Origin: Escherichia coli
GTDB taxonomy: Bacteria > Pseudomonadota > Gammaproteobacteria > Enterobacterales > Enterobacteriaceae
Assembly (NCBI RefSeq): GCF_017348835.2
Contig: NZ_CP071375.1
Length of the DNA stretch: 64,000 bases
Reading direction: 5' to 3' (one strand)
Position numbers and translations under genes: made by a program. This document shows positions 46,769 to 64,000 of the stretch, piece by piece. The stretch's first letter is position 1. Every line of letters starts with the position of its first letter. Below the pieces are notes generated by a model. That model was given only the letters and a program-made list of their open reading frames with translations, was not told the DNA's origin and searched no databases.

Positions 46769-47010
46769 AGTTACCAGTCTCATAGGAGCGGACAATTTTC
46801 CGTTAGGGCGGTAAATTGTACTTTGATACATGAAAATACGGGTTTTCTTGATTCAGACGCGCAGCGGTGTGCATTTGTTTGCCGCTTTAGCGAAATAAAT
46901 CAGAAAATCAGACGCGGTCGTTCACTTGTTCAGCAACCAGATCAAAAGCCATTGACTCAGCAAGGGTTGACCGTATAATTCACGCGATTACACCGCATTG
47001 CGGTATCAAC

Positions 47011-47087
47011 GCGCCCTTAGCTCAGTTGGATAGAGCAACGACCTTCTAAGTCGTGGGCCGCAGGTTCGAATCCTGCAGGGCGCGCCA
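47011..47087 (+). tRNA. argU: tRNA-Arg (anticodon UCU)
   Basis: 77 nt gcgcccttagctcagttggatagagcaacgaccttctaagtcgtgggccgcaggttcgaatcctgcagggcgcgcca; cloverleaf with anticodon loop cuUCUaa. Confidence 0.95.
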
Positions 47088-47102: not shown

Positions 47103-48265
47103 TTACGCCTTCTTTATATCCTCCATAATTCCACAGTGGGACATATTTGGGACATGATCACCAAAAATGTCGTCTATTTTCCTTGCATGCTCTGTCAAAT
47201 GATTAGGCGCAAGGTGAGCATACCTACGAACCATTTCTATGGACTCCCATCCGCCCATTTCCTGAAGCACAGATAATGGGACGCCTGACTGGATCAGCCA
47301 GCTTGCCCAGGTGTGTCTGAGGTCATGGAAACGGAAATCTTCAATTCCTGCACGACGACAAGCTGATAGCCATGATGTCTTGCTGTCGATGCGCATCTTC
47401 CTGACCGCAGGCGTTGATGTTCCATCTGCTCGCTTAGCCGCCTTGGTATGTACAAACACCCATTTGTGATGCTTGCCTATTTGATCACGCAACACTTTAC
47501 AGGCGGTATCGTTCAGCGCCACACCAATGGCGCGGTTTGATTTGCTCTCTTCTGGATTCACCCAGGCAACTCGTCGCTGCATGTCGATTTGTTGCCATTC
47601 CAGATTTATGATGTTCGACTTTCTCAGACCAGTTGCCAGCGCAAACTTGACGACAGATTTCAGTGGTTCGGGGCACTCATCAATAAGGCGTTTTGCTTCC
47701 TCCTTTTCCAGCCATCTGACTCGCTTGTTTCTGACCGCTGGTATCTTGATGACAGGCGCTTTTTCCAGCCACTTCCAGTCGCGTTCTGCAGCACGGAGAA
47801 TGGCCTTTATCATGGCAAGATGCTTTGCCTTTGTCTGAGTTGATACTGGCTTTGGTTCATAAACAGGCGGTTCTTTACCTTTCCTGATGGCGGCCTGAAC
47901 TTTCTGTTTCCATATTTCTTTCGTCTTTCTGTTATGCATTCTGCTTACAGCAGAGTAAATCTTTGCCTCCGAGATATCTTTAAGCCTTATACCCTCAAAA
48001 TGTTCAAGCCAGAACTCAATCCGGCTTTTATCTGAATCGAGAGATTTTTATCAGCTTTTTCCTCAAGCCATCTTAGGCAGGCCTCTTCAAAAGTGACATC
48101 AGGTAAATCCCCTAGCTTTTCTACTCGCCAGAGTTCTGCTTTTCGCTTGTCGTGCAACTCCTGAGCTTGCCGCTTGTCCTTTGTGCCAAGAGATTCCTTA
48201 ATTCGTTTCCCGCCCGGGAGCGAATACGAGGCATACCATATTTCATTTCTGCGGAAGAGTGACAT
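47103..48265 (-). pseudogene. intD: tyrosine integrase, reading frame interrupted by a frameshift
   Basis: N-terminal 74 codons ([19 protein letters not shown]..., ORF 47987-48265) and C-terminal catalytic part (ORF 47103-47939, HxxR ... Y) are in different frames; the break is at a 5-nt homopolymer at 48045-48049. Confidence 0.8.
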
Positions 48266-48492
48266 TTTCTTTCCTCTGTTATGCCATCACCCGCGCTCAC
48301 CTGGACAGTATGCAGCGGAGACTGAAGCGCCGCAATGCAAGCTTGCCGTGTTGTGAGGTAAGGAGATTTTGGCTTGGTTGGATCTTTACGTGTTGCCTGT
48401 AGGCGGCCTGTTCGTATCCAGTTGGTGGCGGTTGGTCTGGATATCTTAAGAAACTGACAGGCCTCATCGAGTGTGAGGCTGTATGGCTCCAT
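48121..48492 (-). CDS. xis: excisionase-like (AlpA/Xis-type HTH) protein; 3' end overlaps int start
   Basis: Start [31 protein letters not shown] at 48492 (ATG overlaps upstream stop as TAATG); 3' boundary uncertain. Confidence 0.55.
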
Positions 48493-60757: not shown

Positions 60758-61254
60758 TGCCTCCATCATTACGAAAAGCCGTTGCTGCTGCTATTGGTGG
60801 CGGAGCAATTGCTATAGCATCAGTGTTAATCACTGGCCCAAGTGGTAACGATGGTCTGGAAGGTGTCAGCTACATACCATACAAAGATATTGTTGGTGTA
60901 TGGACTGTATGTCACGGGCATACAGGAAAAGACATCATGCTCGGTAAAACGTATACCAAAGCAGAATGCAAAGCACTCTTGAATAAAGACCTTGCCACTG
61001 TCGCCAGACAAATTAACCCGTACATCGAAGTCGATATACCGGAAACAACGCGCGGCGCTCTTTACTCATTCGTTTACAACGTGGGTGCTGGCAATTTCAG
61101 AACATCGACGCTTCTTCGCAAAATAAACCAGGGCGATATCAAAGGCGCATGTGATCAGCTACGTCGCTGGACATACGCTGGCGGTAAGCAATGGAAAGGC
61201 CTGATGACTCGCCGTGAGATTGAGCGTGAAATCTGTTTGTGGGGTCAGCAATGA
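60757..61254 (+). CDS. rrrD: phage lysozyme (endolysin)
   Basis: 165 aa; N-terminal SAR-like hydrophobic segment; lysozyme motifs. Confidence 0.88.
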
Positions 61255-61712
61255 ACAGAGTAACCGCGATTATCTCCGCTCTGGTTATCTGCATCATCGT
61301 CTGCCTGTCATGGGCTGTTAATCATTACCGTGATAACGCCATTACCTACAAAGCCCAGCGCGACAAAAATGCCAGAGAACTGAAGCTGGCGAACGCCACC
61401 ATTACTGACATGCAGCAGCGCCAGCGTGATGTTGCTGCACTGGATGAAAAATACACGAAGGAGTTAGCTAATGCGAAAGCTGAAAATGATGCTCTGCGTG
61501 ATGATGTTGCCGCTGGTCGTCGTCGGTTGCACATCAAAGCAGTCTGTCAGTCAGTGCGTGAAGCCACCACCGCCTCCGGCGTGGATAATGCAGCCTCCCC
61601 CCGACTGGCAGACACCGCTGAACGGGATTATTTCACCCTCAGAGAGAGGCTGATCACTATGCAAAAACAACTGGAAGGAACCCAGAAGTATATTAATGAG
61701 CAGTGCAGATAG
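61251..61712 (+). CDS. rzpD: i-spanin (Rz)
   Basis: 153 aa from [18 protein letters not shown]-terminal TM plus coiled coil. Confidence 0.85.
61471..61653 (+). CDS. rzoD: o-spanin lipoprotein (Rz1) embedded in +1 frame of Rz
   Basis: 60 aa; lipobox VVVGC; proline-rich. Confidence 0.8.
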
Positions 61713-61743
61713 AGCTGCCCATATCGATGGGCAACTCATGCAA

Positions 61744-62037
61744 TTATTGTGAGCAATACACACGCGCTTCCAGCGGAGTATAAATGCCTAAAGTAATAAA
61801 ACCGAGCAATCCATTTACGAATGTTTGCTGGGTTTCTGTTTTAACAACATTTTCTGCGCCGCCACAAATTTTGGCTGCATCAACAGTTTTCTCCTGTCCA
61901 ATTCCCGAAACGAAGAAGTGATGGGTGATGGTTTCCTTTGGTGTTACTGCTGTCGGTTTGTTTCCAACAGTAAACGTCTGTTGAGCACATCCTGTAATAA
62001 GCATTGCCAGAGCGGCAGAAAACAACATTTTTTTCAT
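61744..62037 (-). CDS. borD: Bor-family lipoprotein
   Basis: 97 aa from MKKMLFSAALAMLITGC. Confidence 0.88.
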   Translation of the reverse strand: MKKMLFSAALAMLITGCAQQTFTVGNKPTAVTPKETITHHFFVSGIGQEKTVDAAKICGGAENVVKTETQQTFVNGLLGFITLGIYTPLEARVYCSQ

Positions 62038-62399
62038 CTTATTATCCTGCATTGTTAAAAACGGCAGAATCCTATGTGACAACAATTAAACGATAATTAA
62101 ATGGATTGATGAAAATTAAAACTATATAGGTGTACGCTCAGACTATTGGAGGAAGTTGGGGACACTCAGAATCCTGTGGAATGAAATAAACCGGTCTATC
62201 CGTCTATTACCCTTTTAGCTGCGCTGTATCGTCGCCGTATTCCCGCATTAACCATGACCGTAGCCCGACGGGGAATTCCTTCTGCGTGAGTGTGCGGGAA
62301 TAATCAAAAACGATGCACACCGGGTTTTACTGTGCTGACAGACGCAGGGTTACCCTCATAGTCGCTTTTCCGGTGCGATGGTGGAAGAAACCGGGATGT

Positions 62400-62594
62400 T
62401 TATTCATCATCACTTTGGATTGATGTATATGCTCTCTTTTCTGACGTTAGTCTCCGACGGCAGGCTTCAATGACCCAGGCTGAGAAATTCCCGGACCCTT
62501 TTTGCTCAAGAGCGATGTTAATTTGTTCAATCATTTGGTTAGGAAAGCGGATGTTGCGGGTTGTTGTTCTGCGGGTTCTGTTCTTAGTTGACAT
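62400..62594 (-). CDS. ribbon-helix-helix small protein (YlcI/DUF3950-like)
   Basis: 64 aa; basic N-terminus then RHH-like NIRFPNQMIEQINIALEQKG. Confidence 0.6.
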   Translation of the reverse strand: MSTKNRTRRTTTRNIRFPNQMIEQINIALEQKGSGNFSAWVIEACRRRLTSEKRAYTSIQSDDE

Positions 62595-62780
62595 GAGGTT
62601 GCCCCGTATTCAGTGTCGCTGATTTGTATTGTCTGAAGTTGTTTTTACGTTAAGTTGATGCAGATCAATTAATACGATACCTGCGTCATAATTGATTATT
62701 TGACGTGGTTTGATGGCGTAGATGCACGTTGTGACATGTAGATGATAATTATTATCATTTTGCGGGTCCTTTCCGGCGAT

Positions 62781-62810
62781 CCGACAGGTTACGGGGCGGC
62801 GACCTCGCGG
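62781..62810. other. lambda-type cos site (cosN with 12-nt cohesive end GGGCGGCGACCT at 62793-62804)
   Basis: ccgacaggttacg|gggcggcgacct|cgcgggttttcgc matches the lambda cohesive-end junction as recalled; cosB-like region follows before Nu1. Confidence 0.8.
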
Positions 62811-62982
62811 GTTTTCGCTATTTATGAAAATTTTCCGGTTTAAGGCGTTTCCGTTCTTCTTCGTCGTAACTTAATGTTTTTATTTAAAACACCCTCTGAA
62901 AAGAAAGGAAACGACAGGTGCTGAAAACGAGCTTTTTGGCCTCTGTCGTTTCCTTTCTCTGTTTTTGTCCGTGGAATGAACA

Positions 62983-63528
62983 ATGGAAGTCAACAAAAAG
63001 CAGCTGGCTGACATTTTCGGCGCGAGTATCCGTACCATTCAGAACTGGCAGGAGCAGGGAATGCCCGTTCTGCGGGGTGGTGGCAAGGGTAATGAAGTGC
63101 TTTATGACTCTGCCGCCGCCATAAAATGGTATGCCGAAAGGGATGCTGAAATTGAGAACGAAAAGCTGCGCCGGGAAGTTGAAGAACTGCGGCAGGCCAG
63201 CGAGACAGATCTCCAGCCAGGGACTATTGAGTACGAACGCCATCGACTTACGCGTGCGCAGGCCGACGCACAGGAGCTGAAAAATGCCAGAGACTCCGCT
63301 GAAGTGGTGGAAACCGCATTCTGTACTTTCGTGCTGTCGCGGATCGCAGGTGAAATTGCCAGTATTCTCGACGGGATCCCCCTGTCGGTGCAGCGGCGTT
63401 TTCCGGAACTGGAAAACCGACATGTTGATTTCCTGAAACGGGATATCATCAAAGCCATGAACAAAGCAGCCGCGCTGGATGAACTGATACCGGGGTTGCT
63501 GAGTGAATATATCGAACAGTCAGGTTAA
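62983..63528 (+). CDS. nohD: terminase small subunit (lambda Nu1-like)
   Basis: 181 aa MEVNKKQLADIFGASIRTIQNWQEQGMPVLRGGGKGNEV..., lambda Nu1-like along full length. Confidence 0.92.
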   Translation: MEVNKKQLADIFGASIRTIQNWQEQGMPVLRGGGKGNEVLYDSAAAIKWYAERDAEIENEKLRREVEELRQASETDLQPGTIEYERHRLTRAQADAQELKNARDSAEVVETAFCTFVLSRIAGEIASILDGIPLSVQRRFPELENRHVDFLKRDIIKAMNKAAALDELIPGLLSEYIEQSG

Positions 63529-64000
63529 CAGGCTGCGGCATTTTGTCCGCGCCGGGCTTCGCTCACTGTTCAGGCCGGAGACACAGACCGCCGTTGAATG
63601 GGCGGATGCCAATTACTATCTCCCGAAAGAATCCGCATACCAGGAAGGGCGCTGGGAAACACTGCCCTTTCAGCGGGCCATCATGAATGCGATGGGCAGC
63701 GACTACATCCGCGAGGTGAATGTGGTGAAGTCTGCCCGTGTTGGTTATTCCAAAATGCTGTTGGGTGTTTATGCCTACTTCATAGAGCATAAGCAGCGCA
63801 ACACCCTTATCTGGTTGCCGACGGATGGCGATGCCGAGAACTTTATGAAAACCCACGTCGAGCCGACCATCCGTGATATTCCATCGCTGCTGGCGCTGGC
63901 CCCGTGGTATGGCAAAAAGCACCGGGATAACACGCTCACCATGAAGCGTTTCACCAATGGGCGTGGTTTCTGGTGCCTGGGCGGTAAAGCGGCAAAAAAC
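63506..64000 (+). CDS. terminase large subunit (lambda A-like), N-terminal part; continues beyond window
   Basis: GTG at 63506 overlapping Nu1 end; translation VNISNSQVNRLRHFVRAGLRSLFRPE... Confidence 0.85.

Follow-up and report, generated by a model that had tools for sequence, protein, structure and literature searches.

A conserved non-coding block at the lysis-packaging junction of lambdoid prophages and the imperfect hairpin that it may form in the late transcript

Several kinds of conserved element that lie between genes have been described in lambdoid phages and their hosts. The sib element of lambda and the hairpins of the N leader and cIII are imperfect hairpins that act in cis within untranslated parts of long phage transcripts; they are cleaved by RNase III and affect the decay of flanking mRNA. 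The AgvB/AsxR and Pas small RNAs are conserved non-coding elements that occupy constant positions in the late regions of lambdoid prophages of pathogenic E. coli. AgvB and AsxR are encoded 3' of PR' and upstream of the lysis genes in the moron site, as independent transcripts of 51-60 nt that have intrinsic terminators and are antisense to the late transcript (PMC4104026), and the Pas genes adjoin the holin/lysozyme operon. REP/BIME and ERIC sequences, extragenic elements that stabilise mRNA upstream of them, are imperfect palindromes of about 100 bp between convergent genes, for which a role as a barrier to 3' exonucleases has been proposed. The put RNA of HK022, a cis-acting antitermination RNA, forms two stem-loops in the nascent phage transcript ahead of a long operon. 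At the level of DNA, De Paepe and coworkers described HR traces at the module junctions of lambdoid phages, which are short patches of 80-100% identity with recombinant breakpoints inside them (De Paepe et al. 2014, PMC3945230).

The locus considered here lies near the right end of the window (the whole 64,000-nt stretch of E. coli DNA that was analysed), which is the late region of a lambda-like prophage. The holin, endolysin and Rz genes of this region are all on the + strand, a lambda-type cos lies at about 62794-62805 and nu1 occupies 62983-63528. The genes nearest to the locus are the following.

61239-61712, + strand: Rz, the last lysis gene, which gives the direction of late transcription (Pfam Phage_lysis).
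61744-62037, - strand: bor/iss, a lipoprotein gene that has been inserted as a moron after Rz and ahead of the block described below (Pfam Lambda_Bor).
62400-62594, - strand: ylcI, called 'RHH' in a previous sequence-only reading of this DNA (Pfam DUF3950; ylcI in RefSeq, YlcI/YnfO family in related records).

That reading had found the gap between bor and ylcI to be free of open reading frames of 60 aa or more, and it was right: the gap is 362 bp, its longest ORF is 37 aa, and the 37-aa ORF on the - strand has no Pfam match. It had also placed ybcV and ybcW at the corresponding site in DLP12, which comparison confirms. Exact copies of the stretch are present in E. coli chromosomes; in these, RefSeq lists iss, ylcI and nohD and leaves the iss-ylcI gap unannotated. 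On the - strand at 62087-62103, 50 nt upstream of the bor/iss start, the sequence CATTTA-ATTAT-CGTTTA resembles the PhoP box TGTTTA-N5-TGTTTA. borD has been reported as a PhoP-activated gene, and lambda and DLP12 have a perfect box of this form upstream of bor.

A perfect 10-nt inverted repeat had been claimed in the gap, and it exists. Its left arm (TATTCCCGCA) is at 62238-62247 as described; the right arm (TGCGGGAATA), which had been assigned to 62296-62305, is at 62293-62302, and the spacer is 45 nt instead of 48 nt, the right arm having been set 3 nt too far right. On the + strand an invariant U·G pair, 62248/62292, lengthens the stem to 11 pairs. On its own, the inverted repeat is weak against chance and unremarkable. 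Perfect 10-mer inverted repeats with loops of 3-60 nt give 40 hits at about 22 distinct loci in the whole 64-kb window, 4.8 +/- 2.5 are expected per 64 kb of first-order Markov sequence, and about 0.03 are expected by chance in the 362-bp bor-ylcI gap alone. The repeat rises above chance because it is conserved, with compensatory change, across hundreds of related phages.

The repeat is part of a longer conserved stretch, referred to here as the block, and a second hairpin, H2, lies to its right. The features of the block and H2 are as follows.

62217-62330, + strand: 'lysis-packaging junction block', non-coding, 114 nt, holding the inverted repeat (blastn, phage and E. coli matches, covariance model).
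62228-62232, + strand: 5' side of the outer helix, AUCGU, which pairs with 62310-62314 (MFE and centroid structures of both folds; RNAalifold).
62238-62248, + strand: left arm, the 5' side of the main stem, consisting of the 10 perfect nt and the U of the U·G pair (pair counts).
62249-62291, + strand: central region of the hairpin, variable in sequence and length (one variant has lost 9 nt through one of the indels), with possible inner helices at 62259-62264/62284-62288.
62292-62302, + strand: right arm, the 3' side of the main stem, of which 62293-62302 is the perfect part (pair counts).
62303-62325, + strand: most conserved stretch of the block, AATCAAAAACGATGCACACCGGG, which includes the 3' side of the outer helix at 62310-62314 (7 of 23 columns variable).
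62370-62394, + strand: second conserved hairpin, H2, CCGGU ... GGAAGAAA ... ACCGG, 5 nt from the ylcI stop codon and at the ybcV/ybcW indel site.

The 114-nt block is 82-100% conserved. In blastn comparisons, window positions 62217-62327 correspond to lambda 46865-46974 (82%) and to the borD-ybcV spacer of DLP12 (83%). A 131-nt query (62205-62335) gave matches of 80-100% identity, and none below 80%, at 434 places in 432 phage records, which makes the block single-copy per phage; lambda, 434, 21 and many Stx1/Stx2 phages are among them. Its edges are sharp, since 431 of the 432 records span query positions 13/16 to 123/126 (about 110 nt). Among complete E. coli genomes, 4,577 of 5,426 (84%) contain the block, with a median of 2 copies per genome and a maximum of 11, numbers that fall within what would be expected for lambdoid prophages per genome. 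No annotation lies under the block match among the five E. coli matches listed. Matches to a covariance model of the block (R1) scored 105-140 bits. Nearly all of the 120 matches from a 14-mer scan of genome contigs were due to chance, the genuine ones being only those in E. albertii and one other.

The same repeat is found left of ybcV in both lambda (46886-46895/46941-46950) and DLP12 (579027-579036/579082-579091), where the arms read TATTCCCGGA and TCCGGGAATA; one C-G pair has been exchanged for G-C and the repeat is still perfect. The sequence-only reading had suggested a recombination remnant at the place that ybcV/ybcW occupy in DLP12. The repeat is not the scar of a ybcV/ybcW deletion because lambda and DLP12, which keep both genes, bear it left of ybcV. 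Recombination is involved in another sense, in that the block is a homology patch with recombinants inside it.

When the block is set beside the systems described above, its proposed effect on the decay of flanking mRNA is shared with sib, the N leader and cIII. Those elements are RNase III-cleaved, a fate that is hypothetical for the block, whose stem (11 + 5 + 3 bp) is broken by large loops and carries a 43-nt apical region. RNase III is not known to cut at such a location, after Rz in the late operon. Compared with HR traces, the block adds compensatory pair changes and strand-biased G·U pairs, neither of which is predicted by a pure homology patch. Identity with the AsxR, AgvB or Pas small RNAs was rejected; they precede the lysis genes, while the block follows Rz and has no similarity to them. 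AgvB and AsxR are represented in Rfam (RF02702/RF02703) by a conserved 3' region of about 42 nt that ends in a terminator; the block has no Rfam match and, on inspection, nothing in common with the published sequences. A dispersed repeat of the REP, ERIC or MITE type was rejected likewise: the matches amount to 434 places in 432 phage records, the context is always lysis cassette, block and packaging module, and the block, unlike REP/BIME and ERIC, is not dispersed. By eye, the block is also unlike the REP and ERIC consensus sequences. A speculative analogy may be drawn with put, in that the block hairpin and H2 would likewise make two stem-loops before a long operon; the block has no sequence or structural similarity to put, and block-bearing phages use Q.

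The suggestion of a structured RNA is the half of the sequence-only reading with the better support. RNAalifold, applied to 35 variants, makes the repeat an 11-pair helix that includes the invariant U·G and is extended by two outer helices. Helices of 3, 5 and 11 bp are predicted to be coaxial with internal loops between them; an RNase III substrate would have about two turns of double-stranded RNA. The 11-pair helix is 97.4% paired across 56 distinct variants and contains two full compensatory swaps. At pair 62246/62294 the change is from C-G to G-C (CG 37, UG 14, GC 4), and at pair 62241/62299 it is from U-A to C-G by way of U·G (UA 29, UG 23, CG 4). The outer helix at 62228-62232 is 99.3% paired, with C-G replaced by U·G in 10 of the 56 variants. 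Covariation over the whole structure is 0.151 compared with 0.137 +/- 0.004 for shuffles (0 of 500 reach it) and is far above slid-partner controls, a count to be read with the fact that related sequences can beat shuffles without any structure. Diversity is low (effective number of sequences 1.23), and the repeat and an inner helix supply no more than two compensatory events each. The repeat arms vary nearly as often as the loop (0.64 versus 0.77 of columns). In the stretch 62303-62325 only 7 of 23 columns vary, compared with about 0.64-0.78 of columns elsewhere in the block, and this conservation also holds in samples anchored outside that stretch. Folding of 91 nt gave z-scores of -2.2 on the + strand and -1.4 on the - strand, a signal that vanishes when a 197-nt region is folded. 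An alternative pairing of the 62303-62325 tail with H2 was dropped, the variants being anti-correlated.

To examine the strand, 229 loci with 50 variants were selected through H2, which lies outside the block and so does not bias the sample with respect to it. In this sample the mismatching cells of the repeat comprise 47 G·U on the + strand and 2 on the - strand, or 155 versus 13 when weighted by copies. Pairing stands at 97.4% on + compared with 80.5% on -. Transitions in unpaired columns are symmetric (17 versus 17), which makes a simple mutational bias unlikely. If each independent site-event is counted once, however, the excess of G·U shrinks to 7:3, which does not differ significantly from the 17:17 of the unpaired columns. 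A thermodynamic comparison of the 56 variants did not separate the strands (mean fold energy -30.9 kcal/mol on + and -31.5 kcal/mol on -, with + the more stable in 28 of 56). Because G·U states are common and perfect DNA symmetry is not needed, an RNA fits these data better than a DNA palindrome.

The reading favoured here, tentatively and at somewhat under an even chance, is that the late transcript contains, where the lysis and packaging genes meet, a conserved RNA hairpin formed by the block, which is also a homology patch for module exchange. The repeat would be the main stem of an imperfect non-coding hairpin of about 100 nt (62220-62317) inside the 114-nt block, most likely read as + strand RNA within the long Q-antiterminated late transcript. 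This transcript proceeds through S-R-Rz, the block, H2, cos and nu1, and the Rz-nu1 stretch of the + strand is untranslated. The 27-kb PR' late mRNA traverses the region rightward, and a CRISPRi roadblock at lambda p79 is polar on downstream late genes (PMC10695390). Together with H2, the hairpin may act in cis on the late transcript, where it could hold up 3' exonucleases or offer an entry site of the RNase III type, and would thereby set apart the fates of the lysis and morphogenesis segments. This role as a processing or stability element is one that we purely infer. In practice the block also serves as an exchange patch because it is the sole stretch common to otherwise unrelated left and right modules.

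The foremost alternative is that the block is only a mosaic-junction linker or HR trace, which survives because exchanges between lambdoid phages pass through it and homogenise it; the repeat would be inherited, have no structural role and be kept palindromic by occasional template-switch correction. This is on balance unlikely. The position of the block, which also speaks for the favoured reading, is constant, after the lysis cassette and before the packaging module, and the flanks are unrelated on both sides. To the left are Rz, Rz plus bor, or a KilA-N gene with a small hypothetical gene, and many related loci have Rz followed directly by the block without bor; the right flank holds either ybcV/ybcW/ylcI/Nu1 or, with other types of terminase, HNH/TerS. 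Left and right classes combine freely, and recombinants with a breakpoint inside the block, as in an HR trace, are seen in Min27, in which the block is followed by TerS without an upstream - strand gene, and in the locus L032. These two breakpoints break a compensated pair and leave a G-G mismatch. Mosaicism between lambda and DLP12 through short, diverged homologous patches has been demonstrated (PMC3945230). Between the window and lambda, the identity of the block (82%) is not above that of the neighbouring genes (90%). Some functional-looking phages also lack the block and can therefore dispense with it: HK97 does not have it, nor do 14 of the 60 loci that share one endolysin with the window. 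These 60 endolysin-anchored loci are near-identical relatives only and bear on presence or absence, not on divergence. However, a linker alone leaves two full compensatory swaps in a 10-bp stem unexplained, as well as the near absence of C·A states where U·G is frequent on several backgrounds. Nor does it account for the insertion of morons on both sides yet never within the block, or for the much lower variability of the 3' tail. Service as a homology patch is, moreover, compatible with an RNA role, which is the combination that the favoured reading adopts.

H2 extends the conserved region beyond the block. In 126 of 130 loci (about 97%) a distance of 40-60 nt separates the block from H2 on its right, and of the genuine H2 copies found independently, 230 of about 233 have the block less than 100 nt upstream. 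This linkage therefore indicates a conserved unit of about 180 nt (62217-62394). The H2 stem also shows a swap in other phages, from CCGGT/ACCGG to CCTGT/ACAGG. A rather unlikely variant of the favoured reading is that the block and H2 (62217-62394; lambda 46865-47031) form a cis-regulatory RNA, new to the late operon of lambdoid phages, that tunes the expression or stability of the lysis message relative to the morphogenesis message. Such an RNA might direct RNase processing or, more speculatively, act on polymerase as it enters the long untranslated stretch.

The junction of the ybcV/ybcW indel lies about 70-100 bp right of the repeat, at H2. Lambda has two H2 copies (CCGGUG...GGAAGAAACCGG) that flank ybcV-ybcW, one after the block at 47007-47031 and a degenerate one at about 48091-48107 that adjoins an unannotated ylcI homologue; the window has a single hybrid copy at 62370-62394. 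The indel therefore looks like recombination between H2 copies. Such recombination would delete ybcV-ybcW, and insertion with duplication would account for the reverse direction. The ylcI (DUF3950) homologue of lambda is on the - strand at 48109-48303, in the p79-cos interval, and corresponds to window 62400-62594.

An improbable reading assigns the function of the block to the - strand, on which it could define the 3' ends or the stability of leftward transcripts made in lysogens (ylcI, ybcV) or regulate bor from upstream. In the window and in lambda, a - strand stop codon (ylcI 62400; lambda p78 47042) precedes the block by about 70 nt, the U-rich run CGUUUUUGAUUAUU before the stem could bind Hfq, and the fold energies equal those of the + strand. 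Against this, pairing is poorer on the - strand by the percentages given above, the block is found without an upstream - strand gene (Min27) and without bor, and the stem has no following U-tract on either strand. The bor promoter region, with PhoP-box-like repeats, lies between the block and bor. In Sp9, Sp10 and Sp12 of strain Sakai a strong intrinsic terminator that belongs to the convergent DUF3950 gene comes ahead of H2 and the block, and since Sakai-type DUF3950 genes terminate there, the - strand is not an obvious carrier. With uncorrected coordinates, the abundant Hfq-CRAC peaks EcOnc10/11/12 (Tree et al. 2014) coincide with the block's right half in Sp9 and Sp10. Calibration against AgvB1, however, shows the old coordinates to be off by about +140 bp. 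The correction brings the peaks to the DUF3950 3' UTR, immediately ahead of the terminator, and makes the three prophages mutually consistent, and the overlap was therefore discarded. The target of EcOnc10/11/12 is then an AAU-repeat stretch upstream of a strong terminator, at 2437-2508 in Sp10 (locus L363) with equivalents in Sp9 (L365) and Sp12 (L366); the published table gives the three without a predicted terminator (Tree et al. 2014). In Sakai, with corrected coordinates, no Hfq-CRAC peak is reported on the block.

It is very improbable that the block is a DNA-level site, with inverted half-sites 55 bp apart for a dimeric or tetrameric protein (the DUF3950 protein being a candidate) or a cruciform. 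Perfect symmetry in the window and the symmetric C/G to G/C swap in lambda would suit such a site, and a protein might bind the 23-nt tail, which is highly conserved. Asymmetric half-sites are nevertheless the commonest in Stx phages (TATTCCCGTA versus TGCGGGAATA; 40+ copies), their asymmetries are of the G·U type only, the block is present without ylcI, and no operator motif was recognised on inspection. That the repeat is a scar of ybcV/ybcW loss or a chance repeat is hardly credible, for although the window lacks both genes and chance alone would give about 5 such repeats in 64 kb, lambda and DLP12 retain the genes yet bear the same repeat in compensated form, the indel junction is at H2 (62370-62394) and thousands of prophages keep the repeat.

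Other identities were considered and rejected. A scan for intrinsic terminators, which have a G+C-rich stem, a loop of 3-8 nt and a U-tract, was negative at the repeat, which has a 45-nt loop and a stem followed by AAUAAUCAAAAAC on the + strand and CGGCGACGAUAC on the - strand, without a U-tract. No promoter-like site for sigma-70, with -35 and -10 hexamers spaced by 16-18 nt, is present in 62217-62330 on either strand. A small protein gene is not indicated, as variable sites are spread 22/27/27 by codon phase and indels of 1, 2 and 9 nt break the frames. An integron attC-like reading failed on inspection, the core motifs not fitting. ARAGORN found no tRNA or tmRNA. A scan of 61000-64000 with Rfam 15 (E-value mode) gave no match overlapping 62217-62395; its six hits all lie elsewhere in 61000-64000, with E of at least 0.12 and scores far below gathering.

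The transcript data consulted, from K-12 and from Sakai, gave no direct evidence for or against a transcript of the block. The nearest + strand Cappable-seq start in K-12 is 75 nt right of the DLP12 block, among + strand starts. A Rho-dependent 3' end on the + strand lies at K-12 579345 (Adams et al. 2021). As the end of a block RNA it was rejected, since the transcript starts at about 579191 (Cappable-seq), with its promoter in the DLP12 H2 copy. The 579191 start depends on a coordinate shift of +777 between K-12 sequence versions, which we take from the essD coordinates. A good sigma-70 promoter, CTGACA-17-TATGAT, is embedded in the H2 copy that adjoins ybcV in both DLP12 (NC_000913.3 579155-579191; locus positions 2656-2692) and lambda, and with the assumed shift a Cappable-seq start is found 8 nt downstream of its -10 hexamer. 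The start at 579191 and the end at 579345 imply an RNA of about 150 nt that is antisense to the 3' end of ybcV. The H2 copy of the window has neither promoter hexamer.

The block is not annotated in the records checked and not described in the literature searched, and a full-text search for its sequence returned no paper. On the favoured reading, it is a conserved cis-acting hairpin of a phage operon that is carried by lambda itself. If the hairpin works in the late transcript, it would be a conserved regulatory RNA inside lambda, among the best-studied genomes in biology. Such an RNA would lie at the junction of the lysis and virion-assembly genes, in Shiga-toxin phages as well, and could bear on lysis timing and toxin release. 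Even as a homology patch only, the block is a clean and very widespread example of a short conserved sequence for module swaps in lambdoid phages, exemplified by bor/iss, ybcV/ybcW and different terminase systems, and it is a handy landmark for annotating the late regions of prophages.

About 600 mostly conjugative plasmids of E. coli and Salmonella carry a copy of the block that is cut at window position 62319, is 87.5% identical and lacks H2. We suspect that these copies travelled with the bor-derived iss of ColV-type plasmids, and they may give a natural test of decay without late transcription. Further right, between cos and nu1, a perfect 16-bp inverted repeat (AGAAAGGAAACGACAG ... CTGTCGTTTCCTTTCT) at 62902-62958 is the longest in the window and caused spurious microRNA-type Rfam matches; we assume that it also occurs in the cos-nu1 region of lambda.
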